The notes beneath the pieces were generated by a model that saw nothing but the letters and a program-made list of their open reading frames with translations, did not search any database and was not told the DNA's origin. Made by a program: the position numbers and the translations under genes. Shown piece after piece: positions 1,150 to 12,835 of a stretch of DNA of 32,000 bases (within the stretch, counting starts at the first letter, position 1; every line of letters begins with the position of its first letter). The DNA lies in NCBI GenBank assembly GCA_964565945.1, contig CAZMGY010000021.1, positions 60,001 to 92,000 of the forward strand, read 5' to 3'. The stretch comes from an uncultured bacterium (lineage in GTDB: Bacteria; GCA-001730085).

Positions 1150-2374
1150 TGGGTGGAAAGAAGAAAATCTTGGAACTCTTTTTGAGTTTAAAAATGGCGC
1201 TAATACTGAGGCAGCCAATTACGGTTCTGGAATTAAGTTTGTTAATGTGATGGACGTGTTTGGTAATCACTTTATTACTAGCGAGAAAATTCGTGAAAGA
1301 GTTAATCTGCCTGAAAAAAAGATTAATTTATATTTGTTAAAAATGGGCGACGTATTATTTAATAGAACGTCAGAGGTTTTCGACGAAATTGCTCTAACTG
1401 CTGTTTATATGGATACTTCACCAGCAATATTTGGTGGCTTCGTTATTAGGGGGCGACCTAAGGCTAACGAACTTGACTTTAAATTTTGTATTTATTGTTT
1501 TTCATCTTATAGAGTCCGTAAGGAATCTATAAGAAGAGGGCAAGGGGTAATACGATCGAACATTGGTCAAAAAGACCTACAGTATGTTCCGTTGTTAGTT
1601 CCTCCTATTATAGAACAAAAGAAAATAGCCAAAATATTATTGACTTGGGATCGAGCGATTGAGGTAACAGAAAAACTAATCAGCAATAGTCAGCAACAAA
1701 AAAAGTCCCTCATGCAACAACTCATCACTGGCAAAAAACGCCTTCTGGGATTTAGTGATGAATGGGAAAAGATTCGATTAAAGCCTCTTTTAGAGGAGGG
1801 AAAGGCTAGAAATAAAGATAGTTCAATACAACGAGTATTAAGTGTTACTAATCATAGCGGTTTTGTATTACCAGAAGATCAATTTTCAAAACGTGTGGCG
1901 AGCAGTAATGTCAGTAACTATAAAATAGTTAAACGTGGAGAATTTGCATATAACCCATCTCGTATAAACGTTGGTTCATTTGCGCGTCTTGATGATTATG
2001 ATGAGGGTATTCTTAGCCCAATGTATGTTGTTTTCAGTGTTAAGAAAGATTCGCTATTTAGTGACTTTTTCTTTCAGTGGATGTCATCACATCACGCAAA
2101 ACAACGTATTCTTTCAAGTACGCAGGGATCGGTAAGAGATTCAGTCAGTTTTCAAGCACTTTGTGCGTTCCCGTTTTTGCTTCCATCACTAAAAGAACAA
2201 CGAAAAATTGCGTCAGTTCTTTTATCTGCGGATAAAGAAATTGAAACTCTTCAACAAAAACTCGAATACCTCAGCCAAGAAAAAAAGGCGCTGATGCAAC
2301 AACTCCTCACTGGCAAACGCCGTGTGAAAATTGATGAAGATGGTATTTCTCAGAAGGAGGTTGTGCGTGCCTGA
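1139..2374 (+). CDS. hsdS: Type I R-M specificity subunit HsdS (two target-recognition domains)
   Basis: ATG at 1139 (MVPDGWKEENLG...) overlaps the hsdM stop by 11 nt. The conserved spacer helices are duplicated: LMQQLITGKKRL (central, nt ~1709-1742) and LMQQLLTGKRRV (C-terminal, nt ~2291-2324). This is typical of HsdS. Confidence 0.9.
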   Translation: MVPDGWKEENLGTLFEFKNGANTEAANYGSGIKFVNVMDVFGNHFITSEKIRERVNLPEKKINLYLLKMGDVLFNRTSEVFDEIALTAVYMDTSPAIFGGFVIRGRPKANELDFKFCIYCFSSYRVRKESIRRGQGVIRSNIGQKDLQYVPLLVPPIIEQKKIAKILLTWDRAIEVTEKLISNSQQQKKSLMQQLITGKKRLLGFSDEWEKIRLKPLLEEGKARNKDSSIQRVLSVTNHSGFVLPEDQFSKRVASSNVSNYKIVKRGEFAYNPSRINVGSFARLDDYDEGILSPMYVVFSVKKDSLFSDFFFQWMSSHHAKQRILSSTQGSVRDSVSFQALCAFPFLLPSLKEQRKIASVLLSADKEIETLQQKLEYLSQEKKALMQQLLTGKRRVKIDEDGISQKEVVRA

Positions 2375-3443
2375 TATTATTTCATTTGAAGCCGCTATTG
2401 CGGAGTCAGAACAATATAAAAAACGTCATTTATTGCTAGGCAATGGTTTTAGTATTGGCTGTCGAGCTGACATATTTCATTATGAGTCTCTTTTTGGGGA
2501 AGCTGATTTTTCGGCAATTCCTGAGGCTAAACAGGTTTTTGAATCTTTACAGACACAGGATTTTGAAGTTGCAATTCGCGCACTTGAGAATGGTTCAAAA
2601 ATTCTACCTATCTATGTGCCCAATGATGACGCAAGCGTTCAGGCAATGAGTAATCATGCTATTGCGCTTAAAGATTTGTTAGTTGCCACAATTGCTGGCA
2701 ACCATCCTCCTAATCCTAATGCAATAGATGATCCAGAGTTTTGGGCTTGCCGACAGTTTTTAAGTTATTTCCTCGCTTCGGATAAGGGAGGACATGTCTT
2801 CACTCTAAACTATGACTTATTACTGTATTGGGCATTGATGCATGATGACAATCCATTTGATGAGGAAGTGGTGGAGCTGAACAAGAATGATGGGTTCGGA
2901 AATGATGAAGATGATCCAGAAGCGGATTATGTTCTCTGGCAAGGTGAGACCTCCGCGCATAGTGCAAATATACTTTTTCTGCACGGTGCACTTCATCTAT
3001 TTGACTCGGGTGCAGAGCTACAGAAATATACTTGGGTTCGTAAGGGTGAACCATTGGTGGATCAAGCGCGCACTGCAATAGCTGCGAATAAATTCCCTCT
3101 TTTTGTCGCGGAAGGAACAAGTACACAAAAGAAAAACAAAATTCGCCATAACGCATATCTTTACCAGTGTTTTAAGGTTCTGACAGCCAACGCACAGACT
3201 GGCACGCACTGTTTTTTCATATTTGGACATTCGTTAGCTGATAGTGATGACCACATCCTAAAACGTCTTGGTAAAGGCCGTTTTAAGAAATTATATGTAG
3301 GTATTTTTGGTGATGCGGATACGCCAGAAAATAGGAATGTGATTGCACGCGCAAATGCTATCGCAGCACTTAGACATGATAGGTATCCTCTTGAGGTGGT
3401 GTTTTTCGATTCCTCATCCGCTAATGTTTGGGGGAATGATTAA
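2367..3443 (+). CDS. SIR2-like (DUF4917-type) protein embedded between hsdS and hsdR
   Basis: GTG 2367 lies 6 nt after RBS AAGGAGG (2354-2360) and overlaps the hsdS stop. The stop TAA shares a base with the hsdR ATG (TAATG at 3441-3445). Motifs read by eye: LLLGNGFS (Rossmann GxG, nt 2439-2453), TLNYDLLL (TQNID-like, nt 2808-2816) and FLHGALH (catalytic HG-like, nt 2982-2987). The family name is from memory and was not searched. Confidence 0.6.
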   Translation: MPDIISFEAAIAESEQYKKRHLLLGNGFSIGCRADIFHYESLFGEADFSAIPEAKQVFESLQTQDFEVAIRALENGSKILPIYVPNDDASVQAMSNHAIALKDLLVATIAGNHPPNPNAIDDPEFWACRQFLSYFLASDKGGHVFTLNYDLLLYWALMHDDNPFDEEVVELNKNDGFGNDEDDPEADYVLWQGETSAHSANILFLHGALHLFDSGAELQKYTWVRKGEPLVDQARTAIAANKFPLFVAEGTSTQKKNKIRHNAYLYQCFKVLTANAQTGTHCFFIFGHSLADSDDHILKRLGKGRFKKLYVGIFGDADTPENRNVIARANAIAALRHDRYPLEVVFFDSSSANVWGND

Positions 3444-6400: not shown

Positions 6401-6718
6401 CCTGATAAGTTTGCAGATAATAAGCACGCACAAGCCTACTATGGTGTTTTGAAAATGTATGTTGGCGAAAACCTTTCTACCATAGATGAAGAACTATCTG
6501 ACCGATGGGTGGGGCTTTCTTTCAATGTAGATGAGATTATTACGAATGCTATAGCCGAGCACTCAATAAATCCCCAAAACATTGAATCCGAAATTCGAAA
6601 CAAGCTACTTCCTATGATCTTTAGTGAGTGTAAGAAAGTAGGTTCAGGAATAGATCAGACTAAGGCAATAACTGAAAGAATTGTTCAGATTGTACGCGTA
6701 GGACTAAATCACTCATGA
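3443..6718 (+). CDS. hsdR: Type I restriction enzyme endonuclease/translocase subunit HsdR
   Basis: N-terminal PD-(D/E)xK motif RPDIVCFVNGLPFAVIEAKRP. SF2 helicase motifs WHTTGSGKS (I), LIDEGHRSQ (II, DEAH-type) and FTGTPL (III). Length is 1091 aa. The gene is coupled to both neighbours by overlapping stop/start codons. Confidence 0.93.
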   Translation: MALIPKFQEEYSAKIPALTLLHNLGWTFLSPEQALSARNGKTSEVVLREVLREELRKRRFTFAGKERVFSENAIDNVIAELCAPALNEGLGVANERIYNHLLYGISVKEFIDGKKVNPTIQIIDWDNVDNNSFLFTEEFSVLRTGEVESRRPDIVCFVNGLPFAVIEAKRPDGHTNKGLTIDEGISQNIRNQRNDEIPHLFAYSQLLFSINGADGRYGTQGTSKPFWAPWREEDISEGEFYILKNKALSSDAKDTLFSHRPKQDRKWYEELIVGGELAVTEQDKMLISLLSPSRLIEMTRYFVLFDKKIGKVAARYQQVFGIKRLIERINTKDNKGVRQGGVIWHTTGSGKSFTMVFLSKALILHGSLKQCRIVVVTDRVDLESQLSTTFSTGGELASKKDKAAAIATSGRMLAEQISKGNERIMFSIINKFAVAAKMQECHNLSSDIIVLIDEGHRSQGGENFIRMRNALPNAAFIAFTGTPLLKDDKTENKFGSIVHAYTMQRAVEDKAVTPLLYEERIPDLDVNERAIDSWFDRITEGLTDEQKTDLKKKFAKKGHLYQSEDRIRLIAYDIANHFVKNIDDGLKGQIACDSKLSAIKYKQFMDELGLFKSAVVMSAPDTREGNTDVDEATIHEVAKWWKENVGSQDEKSYTKNIVKRFEEDNDLKIIIVVDKLLTGFDEPRNTVLYIDKPLKEHSLIQAIARVNRLHEKKKFGLLIDYRGILAELDTTIAKYQDLASRTQGRFDIEDLEGLYQQMSTEYKKLPRLYKDLLAIFKNVKNKGDIEQLRQVIVPKVQEQHGEMVDINLKAREDFYDRLSEFANCLKVALQSASFYEDKSFTEQDRKHYKETVKQYSSLRQLAKADAGETVDYDEYAEQVKKLMDKHVVGVEVKEPDGVYEVGKMGKSDPKDWSEDKTRNETDIIKTRITRMIEQSLRDDPYAQEVFSKLLKQVIEEAETLFDHPLKQYMLFKEFEEKVEKREVDSLPDKFADNKHAQAYYGVLKMYVGENLSTIDEELSDRWVGLSFNVDEIITNAIAEHSINPQNIESEIRNKLLPMIFSECKKVGSGIDQTKAITERIVQIVRVGLNHS

Positions 6719-7464
6719 GGAATTTAGCTACACACAGGAATGGTTCAATTCAATATGGAGATACAGCCATTAATTTTTCTATTGAACCCAGAGCAACAGA
6801 TGCACCAAAAGTTTTAATAAAAGTACATCCAGATTGCCGCGTTGTAGCACTTGCACCACCGATGGCATCTCATGATGAAATTATGCAGGCGGTAAAGAAA
6901 CGAGCACGATGGGTTTGTAAACAAATGCGGTACTTTGATAAACAACGCGAAAATATTCTCCCGCGTCACTATGTTAGTGGCGAAAGTCATTTCTATCTTG
7001 GGCGTAGGCATCTATTAAAGGTTCAAGAAAATGCTCAAGATACTCCCAAGGTGAAGTTGCTACGGGGTGTTTTGGAAGTTCAAGTACGCAAAGTAAGCCC
7101 AGAAAAAATAAAAGCAATGCTTTTTGATTGGTATAGAGTTCGTGCTAAAGAAGTATTTGATCGTAGGCTAGAAGAAGTTGTTTCTAAAACATTGTGGGTA
7201 AATGATAAGCCATCTATTCACCTTCTTTCTATGCAGACGCAATGGGGGAGTTGCTCGCCGAAAGGTCAGTTGACAATTAATCCTCATTTGGTGAAAGCAC
7301 CAAGAGATTGTATTGATTATGTGCTACTTCATGAGCTTTGCCATATTGCAGAACATAATCATAGTGAACGGTTCTATCGGCTAATGAAGCAAGTTATGCC
7401 TCATTGGGAAAAAGTAAAAGAAAGACTCGATGGTATGGCTTACTTTTATTTGAACGATACTTAA
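6715..7464 (+). CDS. DUF45/YgjP-type (M48-like) HExxH metal-dependent hydrolase
   Basis: ATGA overlap with the hsdR stop (6715-6718). The zinc motif HELCHIAEHNHSERFY closely parallels E. coli YgjP HELAHLKEKEHNKAFY (recalled from memory). Confidence 0.82.
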   Translation: MRNLATHRNGSIQYGDTAINFSIEPRATDAPKVLIKVHPDCRVVALAPPMASHDEIMQAVKKRARWVCKQMRYFDKQRENILPRHYVSGESHFYLGRRHLLKVQENAQDTPKVKLLRGVLEVQVRKVSPEKIKAMLFDWYRVRAKEVFDRRLEEVVSKTLWVNDKPSIHLLSMQTQWGSCSPKGQLTINPHLVKAPRDCIDYVLLHELCHIAEHNHSERFYRLMKQVMPHWEKVKERLDGMAYFYLNDT

Positions 7465-7582
7465 GGGTTTTCATTGATTACGCATTACTGGGAACTAACG
7501 ATTGCTTGATAAATGGCTATTCGCATAGTTTTTGTTAAAAATTGAGTGCTAACCAATAGCGGACATAAGCAAAGGAGATATC

Positions 7583-10500
7583 TTGGGGAAAAAAGAAGCA
7601 AGGCGCACTAAGTCAAAGTCAACACCGCGTCAAACAGGTGGGGCAGGATACGACTTCGAAGATTTGATTGCAGCCTGGATGATGGTGAAGATGCTGCGTG
7701 AGATTAGGTTGCCAGGTGTTGAGGAGTTTGGTACAGCGATTCAATGGCAAGCGGAAGTGTTAGGTTGGGAACAGATCGATGACCTTCTGGTTACATGTGT
7801 GGTTGAAGAAGAAAAGAAAAAGCAGCTAGCCATCTCTTGTAAAAGCAACATGCAAGTTAGTGGGTCTGGGCTTCCATTTGATTTTCTCAAAAATGCTTGG
7901 TCACTATGGATAAAAGGCGAGCCTTTTAATAAGGAAAATGATTGCATGATGTTGGTTCAGAAAGGCAGCAATCAAAATTTTTTTACTGCTTGGGCAGACC
8001 TAAAATATTGGTGTTCTGAGGGCGATGTAGAAACGGCTCTAGCACGAATTACAGCTTCTCAGAAACATAGTAAAATATACAATGGCGTTAAGGCTCCTGA
8101 TAAAAGCAGTAATTATACAAACGAAGATACTATTGCGCTTATACGCAGTTTAGAAGTTATTCCTGCAGATTTTCATTTAGCTAGTTCGGAATACGAAGAC
8201 ACTTCATTATCCCATTGTCGTGATCTTTTGCAGGATGGCTCTGAAGAGACTGCAAAAAAGCTATGGGACTGGCTTCTCAAGAAAGCTAAAGTCAAACGTA
8301 TCTCAGGTGGAACATTACAGCTATCAGAGTTGTGGCAAGAATTGGTTCCAGCATTTGATTTAAAAGACCATCCAAACTTTCTTTCATCATGGAAGTCTCT
8401 TAAAGCTATATCCGAAGAATATAAGAGATCAATCGAAATTGAATTGCCTAATGGTCATAGTGTCATAAGGCCTGCCGAAGAAGACCTGATAGAGCATCTT
8501 AGAGATGGTCCAATATGTATTGTATATGGTAGCTCTGGAAGGGGTAAATCGGCGGTTGTTAAATCTACTTTAGATAAGAAGCTATCTGATTGGAATCAGG
8601 TTTGGTTTTCTCCGGAAAACCTAGACTTAGCTTCAAGTGAAAGGACTCGCTCAGAAGTGGGATTGCTTAGACCTTTGCAGGATGTACTTGCTCACTCATC
8701 GGAAGAAAAAAATGTCCTAATTATAGATTCTGCTGAGAGGATTAACCCCGATAGCAGAAAAATTGTAAAGTCGCTTATTTCCAACCTATTGATACACAAT
8801 GGCGAACAGAAGAGTCGTTTGAACTGGCGAGTTATCATTGTTGGGCAAACCGAGGCTTGGGCATCTGGCAATTTTCATGAAATTTCAGGACTCTCTTCTA
8901 TTCAGCCTATAGAAATTTCTTCCCTTGACCCTTCGGATGTCAGAGCAGCTTTGCATTCAAGCAATCACTTATCTTGGCTTGCTTCGGATAACGAAGCGCT
9001 TATAGCCTTAGGTAACTTGAAAACTTTGGCTTGGGTAATGCGAGCTGGAACCATTTTTCCAAAAGGGGGAATGAATAGCATATCGTTGCCTGCAATCGCT
9101 GATCGTTTATGGTCGTATTGGACAAAAGATAAAATAAAACTTCAGAATCTTCTGATGCAACTTGCTGAACGTGAAGCTCAATTTGAACGTAGCTTTCCTA
9201 TCAGTGGGTTTGGTATTGATGTAAGCCAAGCTCTTGATGAAGGTTTGGAATGCTTGCCACTACGAAAAAGAAAAGAGACTAATTCAATCGAGTTTGAGCA
9301 TGACCTGGGTGCTGATTGGGCAAGGTTTCAGCGTTTAAAAGAAATAAAAAATGACATAAGCTCTTGGGCACCATTTGCTAGCAACCCTCTCTGGCATAAT
9401 GCTTTGCGCATGATGGGGCAACTCCTATTACGAGAAAAAACTGAACAAGGAACACTATGGGATGTTGTTTATGATGAAGCAGAAAAAACAAAAGTTGAAA
9501 ATCCTTTAGCAGCAGATATTCTCTTAGATTCTTTGTGCCTTGATCCATTTGCTGCGCATTATCTTAATGAGCGGTCGGATATACTTTTTGCAGATAACGG
9601 GGCTCGTTTAAACCGCTTATTAAAACGTTTTCATCATATAGCGACCGTTTCAAATGTCTCTAGCGAGTCCTTGGACATTGATCCCTCGCTAAAATTGTAT
9701 TTAGAAGACATGCAAAGGTTGCCAATCTATGGTCGTTGGCCACAAATTGCACAATTTCTTTCAGATCACAAAGAACAAGTTTCCAGCCTAATCTCACCAA
9801 CTATTTCAAAACTATGTGAGACTTGGCTTACAACAACACCTCTCTATCTTGATCCTGAGGCAAATACGCCGATGCCCTATAGAAAGGTATTTGCAGAGCT
9901 TGCTTTAAGCACGGTAAGGACTTTACAACTTGAGCAAAAGAAAGGGCACTTGTGGCTCACAGATGACAGCGAAAAGCCTCTTTATGGGGCAGCATTTGCG
10001 GCTGTAAACGATCTTCCTGACGAAGTCTGCGAATGGGCTTTAGAAATGGCCTGTAGAAGACCTTGCAAAAAAGAAATACCTGAAGCGCTTGCAGCCTATC
10101 GAGAAGAAAGAAGAAAAGAACATAGAGAAAAATTGCGCACTGATAAGGCTTATCCTGAAAGGCACGAGCGTTTACGTTCAATGCCTTCCGGTATTTCAAG
10201 CCATAGAGATTTACCTCCATGGCCATTAGGGCCACAAGGTAGTGTAGATAATACTTTTCGAGATTATTGCTTGAACTCAAACTCCATGGCTAGGCTGATG
10301 TATCTAAGGCCAGAAGTTGCAAGCGAGTGCCTTCTTGCAATGCTAATAGATTATTCGCGTAGCCCTCTCCGAGATGATTTAGGTCTAGTGTATAGTCACA
10401 CAGGATACCCTACGGCATATTGGAAAAGTCCATTTTTCCAGTTTTTACAGTTGAATAGCACTATAGCCATGGATTCCCTTATTTCGCTCGTTAATTTTTG

Positions 10501-12835
10501 TACAGATCGATGGGCAGATGATTTTGAGAGCGATTATAGTCTAGAGGTAAGTCTACGAGATGGTCAAAAACAAAGTTTGAAAGGAAACGGACATGTTTTC
10601 TCCTGGTCTCAAGAAAGCTCCACATCTAACGGACAGCTCTACTGTGCGTTAGCAGCACTAGAAAAATGGATTTATATTGAAATTGATAAGGACGCAGATG
10701 TAGAGCCTGCGCTCAAGAGACTTATCGAAAACTCAAATTCTGTTGCAATAATAGGCGTGCTCCTAAATGTCGGTAAATACAAACCAAGCTTATTTACAAG
10801 CGCATTACAACCTTTTTTAGGGGTATATGAATTCTATCAAGCCGATGACAACCGCCTTCTAGATGCCGGGCATTGGTATGATGCTGGGGCATGGCCGTGT
10901 GAGGGTGAAAAAATATTTGAAATGGCCAAAGAGTGGCACTTTGCTCCGCACCGGAAAATTCCGTTGCGGCAATTAGCTGTTCAACTTGCTCTCAGTGATA
11001 AAGAGACAGCCTCTTTTATTAAGGAAGCTTCTGAAAGTTGGGAAACACATTCAGTCGAGGAAAAATATGATTTAGAGGTAAGGATATTAAAAGCTGAACT
11101 TGATCCTGAAAATTATAAGCCAGAAAAAGACCAACAATCTGGGCAGACATTATTGAGGTGTTATTACCCAGACAAGCTACAGAAGGACATAGAAGATTTT
11201 CAGAAAAGAAAAAGTCCGAGATGGCATGCTGTTACTATACCTATTCAATGTGAAGAATTATTGGCTTCGTCTCATAACATTACTGATGAAGAGGCTGAGA
11301 GATTAGCTTCTGCACTCAATGTTGTTCCTATAGAAGAAGATGAAGAGAGCATCCTCGCGACAGAAGCGGCGATCGCAGCTACGTTGTTAATAAAGGCACC
11401 TAGCTGGCTAGACAAAAACCCTGATCTTAAAAAGAAAACAAATGAAATTATTCAAAATATAATTTCTAGTATTGGAGACACCTTAGAATCTTTGAGAGCT
11501 ACCGGACATCTTATGAGTGATAGGTCGCTTGCCTTTGCCACTCATGTTGTTGTTGAAGAATTTATAAACAACCCGTCCCATGATAGGGACGTAGATGCTT
11601 CTGTATTAAGAATTTTAACCAGTGGTGACAACCAGGCTGTCTTCATTTTGATGAATGCGGCTTATCAAAATAGAGATAAGCTAGGTGATCGCTGGTGGCG
11701 TCTCATACAAATATCAATCTTTTGTGCTGGACTTAATAGCCTTAGTCCGGGCTTTAGAGAAGATGAAGATAAATCGATTGAATTACGTTGGGCGCGTTGG
11801 TTGATATGGTTGCGCACCCGTGATTTAAACGTTTCAGTAAATGCAGAAGCTATTGACCCAATCGGATTAGCGGTTCGTGTGGATCGTTTAAAAATGGCTC
11901 GTATTAAACGGCTATTTGGAAAAGATACAGACGGACGTTTGCGTTACTATCATCGAGGGTTTTTTGGCCTTGAGACCTACACGTTGGATAAAATGTTTTC
12001 ATGGATGCTGAGTGATCATGGGCAAGGGGCTGACAATAGTTCGGATGTGCGTCTCTTAACTCAAAAACTTTGGGTGTTCGAAGCTTGGAGAAAGCAAAAA
12101 AGCGAAGAAGCCAACGATGAAGATAATGACCGTGATAGCCTTCCAAGCGATTTAGGTTACTCGCTTCTTCAAAAGCTATCAAAGCTTATGCTGACTGCAC
12201 AAAAAGATGAAGCGTCTAAGATTTGGAAGCCGATACTTTCTATGGGCGTAGATGGTCATCATTCTATTGAGCATTTCATTGATGGGTGGCTGCTAGGAGT
12301 GGTTCAAACCAAAAATACAAACTCCCTTTCTCAGTTTTGGAGAGAATTAATTGAGTTTGCGCTCTTATCTCCCAACTGGTCTCCCAATAAATATTGGTAT
12401 AAAGGAGAAGAGTTATTTCGACATCTTTTAGGATTTGGCTTGATTAATCTTGCGGAGTTTGAAGGTGCTCAAAACATTATTTTCGAAATAAAGGATCTGT
12501 ATAAACGTTGGGCTGATACACACCTTTCTCAGGAAGAGGAAAATATAGCAGGCTTTGCATATTTTCTTTCCTCTAAAGTGGGGGCACCTATTCGGTATGA
12601 TGGTCTGCTGTGGATCAGAGACTCCTTGCGACCTCCCAATCCTGCATATTGGCGTCGAATGGAAACCGGACGCTCTCTTGTTGATCTTTTGGATGTTATC
12701 ATTACCGAAGAAACTAAACAAATATCTTCAGATTCTGAGTTTCGCGATGCGTTATTGAGGGTTGCAGCACATTTGGCTGATAGGCAAGTTCCTATTGCAT
12801 TATTGTTGCAAGAGAAGATTCGCCAGGTGCATTAG
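7583..12835 (+). CDS. 1750-aa multidomain protein: Cap4/DUF4297-like PD-(D/E)xK nuclease N-terminus, P-loop NTPase and a long alpha-helical C-terminal region; candidate STAND/Avs-like defence protein
   Basis: TTG start at 7583 follows RBS AAAGGAGA (7571-7578). N-terminal aa 19-89 read GGAGYDFEDLIAAW ... IDDLLV ... LAISCKS. Walker A is GSSGRGKS (aa 316-323, nt 8528-8551). Walker B-like is VLIIDSAE (aa 378-385, nt 8714-8737). The uninterrupted 5.25-kb ORF makes the CDS call safe. The function is inferred from motifs only. Confidence 0.85.
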   Translation: MGKKEARRTKSKSTPRQTGGAGYDFEDLIAAWMMVKMLREIRLPGVEEFGTAIQWQAEVLGWEQIDDLLVTCVVEEEKKKQLAISCKSNMQVSGSGLPFDFLKNAWSLWIKGEPFNKENDCMMLVQKGSNQNFFTAWADLKYWCSEGDVETALARITASQKHSKIYNGVKAPDKSSNYTNEDTIALIRSLEVIPADFHLASSEYEDTSLSHCRDLLQDGSEETAKKLWDWLLKKAKVKRISGGTLQLSELWQELVPAFDLKDHPNFLSSWKSLKAISEEYKRSIEIELPNGHSVIRPAEEDLIEHLRDGPICIVYGSSGRGKSAVVKSTLDKKLSDWNQVWFSPENLDLASSERTRSEVGLLRPLQDVLAHSSEEKNVLIIDSAERINPDSRKIVKSLISNLLIHNGEQKSRLNWRVIIVGQTEAWASGNFHEISGLSSIQPIEISSLDPSDVRAALHSSNHLSWLASDNEALIALGNLKTLAWVMRAGTIFPKGGMNSISLPAIADRLWSYWTKDKIKLQNLLMQLAEREAQFERSFPISGFGIDVSQALDEGLECLPLRKRKETNSIEFEHDLGADWARFQRLKEIKNDISSWAPFASNPLWHNALRMMGQLLLREKTEQGTLWDVVYDEAEKTKVENPLAADILLDSLCLDPFAAHYLNERSDILFADNGARLNRLLKRFHHIATVSNVSSESLDIDPSLKLYLEDMQRLPIYGRWPQIAQFLSDHKEQVSSLISPTISKLCETWLTTTPLYLDPEANTPMPYRKVFAELALSTVRTLQLEQKKGHLWLTDDSEKPLYGAAFAAVNDLPDEVCEWALEMACRRPCKKEIPEALAAYREERRKEHREKLRTDKAYPERHERLRSMPSGISSHRDLPPWPLGPQGSVDNTFRDYCLNSNSMARLMYLRPEVASECLLAMLIDYSRSPLRDDLGLVYSHTGYPTAYWKSPFFQFLQLNSTIAMDSLISLVNFCTDRWADDFESDYSLEVSLRDGQKQSLKGNGHVFSWSQESSTSNGQLYCALAALEKWIYIEIDKDADVEPALKRLIENSNSVAIIGVLLNVGKYKPSLFTSALQPFLGVYEFYQADDNRLLDAGHWYDAGAWPCEGEKIFEMAKEWHFAPHRKIPLRQLAVQLALSDKETASFIKEASESWETHSVEEKYDLEVRILKAELDPENYKPEKDQQSGQTLLRCYYPDKLQKDIEDFQKRKSPRWHAVTIPIQCEELLASSHNITDEEAERLASALNVVPIEEDEESILATEAAIAATLLIKAPSWLDKNPDLKKKTNEIIQNIISSIGDTLESLRATGHLMSDRSLAFATHVVVEEFINNPSHDRDVDASVLRILTSGDNQAVFILMNAAYQNRDKLGDRWWRLIQISIFCAGLNSLSPGFREDEDKSIELRWARWLIWLRTRDLNVSVNAEAIDPIGLAVRVDRLKMARIKRLFGKDTDGRLRYYHRGFFGLETYTLDKMFSWMLSDHGQGADNSSDVRLLTQKLWVFEAWRKQKSEEANDEDNDRDSLPSDLGYSLLQKLSKLMLTAQKDEASKIWKPILSMGVDGHHSIEHFIDGWLLGVVQTKNTNSLSQFWRELIEFALLSPNWSPNKYWYKGEELFRHLLGFGLINLAEFEGAQNIIFEIKDLYKRWADTHLSQEEENIAGFAYFLSSKVGAPIRYDGLLWIRDSLRPPNPAYWRRMETGRSLVDLLDVIITEETKQISSDSEFRDALLRVAAHLADRQVPIALLLQEKIRQVH

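Follow-up and report, generated by a model that had tools for sequence, protein, structure and literature searches.

A probable divergent branch of the Avs4 lineage of antiviral STAND proteins, with a Cap4-like nuclease domain, beside a type I restriction-modification cassette of an uncultured bacterium

What is the role of a protein of 1750 amino acids (aa) that combines the marks of a nuclease, a P-loop NTPase and a long helical array, and whose gene lies next to a type I restriction-modification (R-M) cassette? The question is raised by a stretch of 32,000 nucleotides from an uncultured bacterium (GTDB lineage GCA-001730085; GenBank assembly GCA_964565945.1, contig CAZMGY010000021.1, positions 60,001 to 92,000 of the forward strand), which is called the window in what follows. 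From the sequence alone, the gene had been proposed to be an uncharacterised single-gene immunity system similar to Avs and other STAND proteins that could not be placed in any named family. The analysis reported here suggests that the protein quite probably belongs to the Avs4 lineage among the antiviral STAND proteins, in which it represents a divergent subfamily still lacking annotation, and that it is no new type of system. The original prediction thus captured an unannotated branch of the Avs proteins but overstated its novelty, since the family is of a known kind. The features of the protein, with positions in the window, are as follows.

7583..12835, + strand: complete open reading frame (ORF) with a TTG start, 1750 aa plus stop; predicted single-gene Avs4-like antiviral STAND protein
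7583..8452, + strand: predicted Cap4-type PD-(D/E)xK nuclease effector, aa 1-290, from an AlphaFold model, Foldseek and hhalign; comprises a disordered basic tail (aa 1-17), the catalytic core (aa 19-130) and a helical extension (aa 131-290)
7640..7663, + strand: G-x-G-[FY]-x-[FY]-E-D motif, aa 20-27, at the start of helix alpha-1; G20, G22, E26 and D27 invariant
7778..7783, + strand: D-D, aa 66-67, just N-terminal to the modelled strand aa 68-75; predicted metal-binding Asp, D67 invariant
7835..7843, + strand: S-x-K, aa 85-87, at the end of the next strand; invariant Ser at the canonical (E/Q) position, Lys conserved
8402..9316, + strand: STAND-type NTPase with nucleotide-binding, helical and winged-helix parts, aa 274-578; homologous to EcAvs4 188-476
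8528..8551, + strand: Walker A GSSGRGKS, aa 316-323; aligns with GEGGVGKT of EcAvs4
8714..8737, + strand: Walker B VLIIDSAE, aa 378-385; aligns with VIVVDSAE of EcAvs4
9293..9322, + strand: F-x-H-D-L-x-x-D-W-A motif, aa 571-580; aligns with ITHDIYEEWA (467-476) of EcAvs4
9317..12832, + strand: all-alpha sensor of the tetratricopeptide repeat-like/solenoid type, aa 579-1750; homologous to the portal-binding sensor of EcAvs4
10208..10231, + strand: LPPWPLGP motif, aa 876-883; G883 invariant, P878, W880 and P881 at least 90 % conserved

An Avs4-type body

Placement in the Avs4 lineage is carried by the NTPase and the sensor. A profile of 34 full-length homologues (22-78 % identical) matches EcAvs4, whose structure was solved with the bound portal of phage PhiV-1 (PDB 8DGF, entry 8dgf_A), at E=1.6e-22. 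The match consists of three collinear stretches, in which aa 274-578 of the query correspond to EcAvs4 188-476, aa 922-1224 to 761-1088 and aa 1466-1737 to 1317-1576; the next profile matches in the PDB are generic ABC-type P-loops with E-values of at least 2.7e-5. Avs4 is also the sole significant family in both PADLOC (E=2.9e-16) and NCBIfam (NF041815, E=1.6e-20), with matches at aa 932-1208. A single-sequence phmmer search of the PDB gave no match, and EcAvs4 was reached only by the family profile. Moreover, the metagenomic protein P0107 acts as a bridge: it is a distant match of the query (E=3e-20) and scores 567 bits against the Avs4 model over profile positions 159-1579.

The predicted structure of the sensor points in the same direction. 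In a Foldseek search, the AlphaFold2 model of aa 560-1750, based on an alignment of 77 rows (pLDDT 85.7, pTM 0.74), matches 8DGF at E=3.4e-19 and TMq 0.58 over ~1280 columns (1282), while the second match, CAND1, reaches E=2.5e-5 with a TM of 0.16 and the rest are generic solenoids with a TM of 0.26 or less. The description of the C-terminal ~1300 aa as Trp/Leu-rich and helical was accurate: this part of the protein contains 12.8 % Leu and 3.0 % Trp and is nearly all helical in the AlphaFold model. For this family it is not unusually large, as had been thought, since the sensor measures ~1170 aa versus ~1100 aa in EcAvs4. Given the library, profile and structural matches and the P0107 bridge, the NTPase and sensor (aa 274-1737) are, as judged from alignments and models, clearly homologous to Avs4, if very divergent. 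A named family is therefore at hand where the original prediction saw none.

Walker A, a Walker B of the hhhhDSAE type and an HD...WA motif are common to EcAvs4 and the window protein. Both Walker motifs had been located correctly in the original prediction, and their key residues G316, S318, G319, G321, K322, S323 and D382 are invariant in the 34 homologues, where E385 of Walker B is at least 90 % conserved. F571, H573, D574 and L575 are invariant in the same set, and the motif at aa 571-580 probably contains the winged-helix His that is conserved in STAND proteins. The label “NACHT-style” given to Walker B is not supported: the Pfam scan of the full-length protein yielded no match to the NACHT profile and, at aa 300-425, only sub-threshold matches to AAA_16, nSTAND1 and AAA_22, with nSTAND5 and nSTAND6 also listed.

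EcAvs4 and the window protein have the same order of nuclease, STAND NTPase and helical sensor (~1100-1170 aa) within a single polypeptide, and the effector-NTPase-sensor layout initially recognised as that of Avs and other STAND proteins is upheld by the domain assignments from profiles and models and by the lack of a conserved partner gene. The two proteins differ in their effectors. That of EcAvs4 is Mrr-like, which is not universal in the Avs4 family, whereas that of the window protein is Cap4-like, and the first ~270 aa of the latter are without a match to EcAvs4 (EcAvs4 1-187 unaligned). Since published work shows Avs4 effectors to be interchangeable, the missing Mrr-like domain does not exclude the lineage. 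Full-length homology to a named defence family had been put forward in advance as evidence against a new system; such homology, to Avs4, was largely found, but it excludes the effector domain and lies far below the curated family cutoff.

The N-terminal Cap4 effector of SeAvs3 and SeAvs7 agrees in type and position with that of the window protein, and the tetramerisation of these Cap4 domains is the mode of activation that would be expected by analogy. Avs3 senses the terminase and Avs7 the major capsid protein. As to the remainder of Avs3, its structure 8DGC is absent among the 60 matches listed in the profile search, and its NTPase and sensor have no detectable sequence match to the window protein. 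The latter is thus an Avs4-type body joined to the effector type of Avs3 and Avs7 (Cap4).

A predicted Cap4-like nuclease domain with a serine variant

The N-terminal domain is less accessible to sequence comparison. A Pfam scan of 23 aligned N-terminal domains gave no significant match; the DUF4297 profile was matched by none of them at E<=10 and not by the full-length protein at E<=1. A PDB profile search with the domain gave nothing significant either, its best entry being HamA (8zue_A), which was matched through the GFxF[QE]D motif at E=0.52. A predicted structure was therefore needed to assign a nuclease. An AlphaFold2 model of the domain (pLDDT 88.1, pTM 0.82) was compared with known structures by Foldseek, and the top 25 matches are all Cap4, LmuA, SeAvs3 or HamA, with E-values from 9e-6 to 8e-2 and 16 of the 25 at E<=1e-3. 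CBASS Cap4 provides the best ones (6WAN, 6WAM, 6VM6 and 6VM5; E down to 9e-6, TMq 0.47-0.49, ~246 columns), and the others are Lamassu LmuA, SeAvs3 (8DGC; 8dgc_A at E=6e-5) and Hachiman HamA (8ZUE). A Cap4/DUF4297-type nuclease, as originally suggested, is hence supported at the level of the fold, while the DUF4297 profile itself recognises none of the 23 members.

Three sequence motifs had given rise to this suggestion, namely GGAGYDFEDLIAAW at aa 19-32, IDDLLV at aa 65-70 and LAISCKS at aa 82-88. Like the two Walker motifs they are found where they had been placed, apart from the end of LAISCKS, which is aa 88 instead of 89, and the intervening spacers are 32 and 11 aa long instead of the 38 and 15 aa given. 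The 23 aligned N-terminal domains share G20, G22, E26, D27, Q56, D67, S85 and K87 without exception; in the 34 full-length homologues D67 and S85 are invariant and D66, K87 and Q91 at least 90 % conserved. With these residues invariant or nearly so in divergent homologues, the alignments indicate that the motifs are under selection and no product of chance. In the model, E26 and D27 are on the first helix, D66 and D67 precede a strand and S85-x-K87 ends the next one, which puts the conserved residues in the predicted fold into the canonical PD-(D/E)xK geometry.

The catalytic triad D41/E59/K61 has been defined experimentally in the HerA-DUF4297 nuclease, which its authors liken to Cap4 (bioRxiv 10.1101/2024.10.24.620088). 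In the window protein D67 is 18 residues before S85, which equals the spacing of D41 and E59. The wider Cap4/DUF4297 group (CBASS Cap4, LmuA, HamA 8ZUE and HerA-DUF4297) has in common with the window clade the PD-(D/E)xK core, the G-x-G-F-x-[FY]-[EQ] helix, an Asp starting strand 2, an x-K ending strand 3 and a helical extension. However, the group carries (E/Q)-x-K where the window clade has S-x-K, and its nucleases are associated with SAVED, SMC or helicase partners, whereas that of the window protein is fused to a STAND NTPase.

The metagenomic Cap4-like/Avs4-like STAND proteins P0107-P0113 consist of the same three modules in 1684-1814 aa and have homologous N-termini, but keep the canonical Q-x-K. 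Their identity to the window protein is no more than 20-21 %. In an hhalign comparison, their N-termini, of the Q-V-K type, align with those of the window clade over 281 columns (Prob 99.9 %, E=1.1e-34), pairing S85 with the Q and K87 with the K of the Q-V-K motif.

The serine raises the question whether the domain still cuts DNA. It could be a dead nuclease fold that serves only as a scaffold for oligomerisation or DNA binding, toxicity then arising by other means, e.g., by depletion of nucleoside triphosphates or recruitment of a host factor. In favour of such a loss, Ser is invariant at the canonical acidic/amide position, and a Pfam inactive restriction-endonuclease domain that is associated with STAND proteins, NA-iREase1, was found among the neighbours of the homologues. 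Nevertheless, invariant E26, D27, D67 and K87, together with D66 and Q91 at 90 % or more, form the usual pattern of a preserved active site. Variation at the (E/Q) position is tolerated by PD-(D/E)xK enzymes provided that other acidic residues are available, and the loci hold no conserved second gene as a source of an alternative effector. Altogether, a dead domain appears unlikely, and an active Cap4-like nuclease is the preferred reading.

A self-contained gene on a mobilizable island

Does the gene act together with its neighbours? All ORFs within +/-10 kb of 80 homologue loci were clustered into families, and no family of neighbours was shared by over 6 of them. As for those present in the window, HsdM was found near 4 and HsdR near 2 of the 80 homologues, and DUF4917, YgjP, ArdA, AbiE and Mob near none. 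The STAND gene is a self-contained module that has no conserved partner. The possibility that it works together with the type I R-M cassette next to it was considered and rejected, since the genes are not co-conserved.

The surroundings also bear on whether the function is antiviral at all. The protein might instead be a STAND regulator, a module for the maintenance, exclusion or addiction of a mobile element, or an accessory of the type I R-M system. Such a role would suit a gene on a mobilizable island that directly follows hsdR and a YgjP-like gene, with no promoter-like site in the 118-bp gap, and of which some copies are plasmid-borne. The same neighbours are, however, not co-conserved, the nuclease is of a type that CBASS, Lamassu, Hachiman and Avs systems employ, and the body of the protein is homologous to a receptor whose antiviral function has been proven experimentally. 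A function outside of antiviral defence is accordingly considered highly improbable, and an antiviral receptor remains the reading that is pursued here.

By a lower-bound count, about one in ten of the nearest neighbours of the homologues is defence-related, which fits a location in defence islands and is supportive of it without proving it. The PADLOC families concerned include type I, II and IV R-M, MADS mad2, Septu PtuA, Shedu SduA, DISARM DrmD, Thoeris ThsA, PifA, Dsr2, Olokun OloA/B, bSEFIR, AbiEii and several PDC candidates. Integrases, transposases, a resolvase, HipA and a KAP NTPase were recognised by Pfam among the nearest ORFs. Three full-length copies are on plasmids. On a Paraburkholderia plasmid (L082, 7010-8419) and a Burkholderia plasmid (L083, 7233-8408), the STAND gene is preceded at a distance of ~600 bp by a gene in the same orientation whose annotation reads ‘HNH endonuclease signature motif containing protein’. 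A phage-encoded origin was rejected, as tblastn found 0 matches in 50,697 phage records.

The family itself is widespread but patchily distributed. A first search returned ~100 full-length homologues of ~1750 aa, and a search with the sensor profile 568 or more clusters at 90 % identity, whose members go by the name of “hypothetical protein” or “ATP-binding protein” throughout. With a sensor fragment, phmmer detected 1275 matches at E<=1e-3, 524 of them at E<=1e-30, among 1.84 billion representatives at 50 % identity. Among 185,579 genomes representing one species each, relatives were found in 179. The 80 loci examined come from Alpha-, Beta-, Gamma- and Deltaproteobacteria, Acidobacteriota, Chloroflexota, Nitrospira and Myxococcota, and the carriers include Pseudomonas, Stenotrophomonas, Aeromonas, Burkholderia, rhizobia, Acidobacteriota and Myxococcota. 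Of 80 full-length representatives at 50 % identity, 58 carry the G-x-G-[FY]-x-[FY]-E-[DN] motif and 74 Walker A, and the sensor starts at residue ~560-580 in full-length matches. Since the motifs and the start of the sensor recur in this way, the architecture of the clade is, by sequence comparison, nearly fixed.

A few members depart from this pattern. In two Sphingomonadales, Parasphingorhabdus marina (L076, 9641-14431) and Sphingopyxis sp. (L077, 9662-14419), the Cap4 core is missing, and a Cys/His-rich N-terminus of ~130 aa (…YICSHPxC…HIVAA…GPRSD…NGIWMCAIH…) is joined at the same linker helix; from its motifs it looks like an HNH/His-Me finger nuclease. Pfam returned nothing significant for the alternative N-termini examined (P0107, P0108, P0111, P0113, L076 and L077), HNH_2 reaching E=0.18 for L077. 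The metagenomic proteins P0022 (1826 aa) and P0027 (1838 aa) carry an additional helix-turn-helix (HTH) domain of the XRE family (PF01381) ahead of the Cap4-like domain. On a plasmid of Aromatoleum aromaticum EbN1 (H1; NC_006824.1, 109792-116545) the gene is in two pieces with an IS1182-like ISAzo2 transposase in between, and this copy is presumably inactivated. A full-length member of 1754 aa (P0221) has been deposited under the nematode Ditylenchus destructor and most likely reflects bacterial contamination of that assembly.

In the window, further elements of the locus are the following.

7571..7578, + strand: ribosome-binding site AAAGGAGA, 4 nt 5' of the TTG, read from the sequence
2331-3443, + strand: DUF4917 gene between hsdS and hsdR in the type I R-M operon (Pfam E=1.6e-66)
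6715-7464, + strand: YgjP-like metallopeptidase gene overlapping the end of hsdR

The 5.25-kb ORF with its own ribosome-binding site and TTG start had been reported to begin 118 bp after the cassette, and the gap between the end of the YgjP-like gene (7464) and the STAND ORF is 118 bp exactly. The start was read from the sequence, and the same start residue (MGKKEARR...) was chosen in the gene calls of a Logan contig (P0001/P0130) and of an NCBI record (P0131). A promoter scan detected no sigma-70-like site in the 118-bp gap 5' of the STAND gene. GC content is flat, with 41.2 % in the STAND gene, 39.4 % in the R-M cassette and 40.4 % in the window. Upstream of the gene, Pfam identifies HsdM, HsdS, a DUF4917 protein, HsdR and the YgjP-like peptidase, and downstream ArdA, a SEC-C protein, DUF6088/AbiEii and a MobA relaxase. 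The type I R-M system, AbiEii, ArdA and the relaxase of the proposed neighbourhood are thus in place. Its tRNA linkage is another matter: ARAGORN found no tRNA or tmRNA gene across positions 1-32000 of the window, so that the island is not visibly tRNA-linked.

The same island was found in an independent sequencing run on Logan contig SRR19987526_66318 (L081; 32,192 nt), in the order HTH, hsdS fragment, hsdM, hsdS, DUF4917, hsdR, YgjP, STAND gene, ArdA, SEC-C, DUF6088/AbiEii, MobA/MobC. Its STAND protein has 1745 aa, 5 residues fewer than that of the window.

Trigger, mechanism and meaning

Several points weigh against a portal-sensing, DNA-degrading member of the Avs4 lineage. The score against NF041815 is 72.1 bits over 3 stretches, compared with a curated equivalog cutoff of 1500, which makes the protein a distant relative and no Avs4 equivalog in NCBI's sense. 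Its identity to EcAvs4 is 13-14 % in the structural alignment. The low curated score leaves the conservation of the portal-binding surface and of the trigger conjectural. The nuclease call depends on a structural prediction whose TM, at ~0.48, is moderate, sequence profiles (Pfam, PDB) being blind to it, and with Ser replacing the acidic/amide residue of (E/Q)xK clade-wide, nuclease activity is a plausible prediction. Of the 276 flanking ORFs closest to the homologues, about 25 match PADLOC models (E<=1e-8), a number that is a lower bound taken from family-summary tables and comes without a matched background control. Finally, the clade is known from sequences and predicted structures alone.

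What, then, would trigger the protein? Distant Avs4 homologues of Acinetobacter and Streptomyces are reported to have retained the response to portals although their effectors have been exchanged (bioRxiv 10.1101/2025.11.14.688446). Since the sensor of the window protein is Avs4-like, the phage portal protein is by this analogy the most probable trigger, but the 13-14 % identity to EcAvs4 keeps its chance at roughly even.

A possible though distinctly less probable alternative retains the Avs architecture and has the sensor diverged towards a protein of phages or mobile elements other than the portal; the clade may then be one of the numbered families (Avs8-24) or an unnamed sensor cluster of Lee et al. 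2026. Apart from the low identity and the 72 of 1500 bits, this alternative draws on features that are the clade's own, such as the LPPWPLGP loop. The latter comes after a long helix of charged residues in the sensor and is not part of the profile-based alignment with EcAvs4. It lies in model residues 308-330, which have no DSSP secondary structure and a pLDDT below 50 at 311-314. There are also many sensor clusters, each with its own target, and MvAvs13 of Myxococcus senses the tail nozzle (PMC13581612); Myxococcus is among the carriers of the window clade as well. However, EcAvs4 is the only structure on which the sensor superposes over its whole length, and the distant homologues of Acinetobacter and Streptomyces are reported to have kept their response to portals. 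The portal thus stays the favoured trigger.

Avs3, Avs4 and Avs7 are activated by a target-induced tetramerisation of their Cap4 or Mrr nucleases (PMC13581612; bioRxiv 10.64898/2026.08.25.746987). By analogy with SeAvs3, EcAvs4 and SeAvs7, for which cryo-electron microscopy and biochemistry have been published, the window protein would exist in the uninfected cell as an autoinhibited monomer. Upon infection, the sensor would wrap around a single molecule of a structural protein that is conserved among phages, which would release the NTPase to form an ATP-bound oligomer, probably a tetramer. The Cap4-like domains would thereby be joined into an active nuclease that may degrade double-stranded DNA indiscriminately, and phage replication would be halted at the expense of the cell, i.e., by abortive infection.

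A recent survey distinguishes 589 STAND clades, of which 198 are defence-associated, and 684 sensor clusters (Lee et al. 2026; PMC13581612). Since its seeds include Cap4-containing STAND proteins, the survey very likely already contains the present clade. A more tentative idea, which we hold to be rather doubtful, is that the S-x-K clade constitutes a functionally distinct Avs family, in which a retargeted sensor derived from Avs4 is combined with a Ser-variant Cap4 of altered chemistry or regulation. If true, the protein would be an uncharacterised pattern-recognition receptor instead of another portal sensor.

No new class of immunity is opened by these results, and their practical yield is modest. 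They improve the annotation and afford a candidate protein for screens of triggers, be it the portal or another, and, with S-x-K, a natural variant by which the tolerance of the Cap4 active site can be probed. Both the NCBIfam Avs4 equivalog and Pfam DUF4297 miss this branch, so that censuses of defence systems undercount it. A widespread gene for a “hypothetical protein” can now be placed, at the strength given above, in the Avs4 lineage of pattern-recognition receptors.

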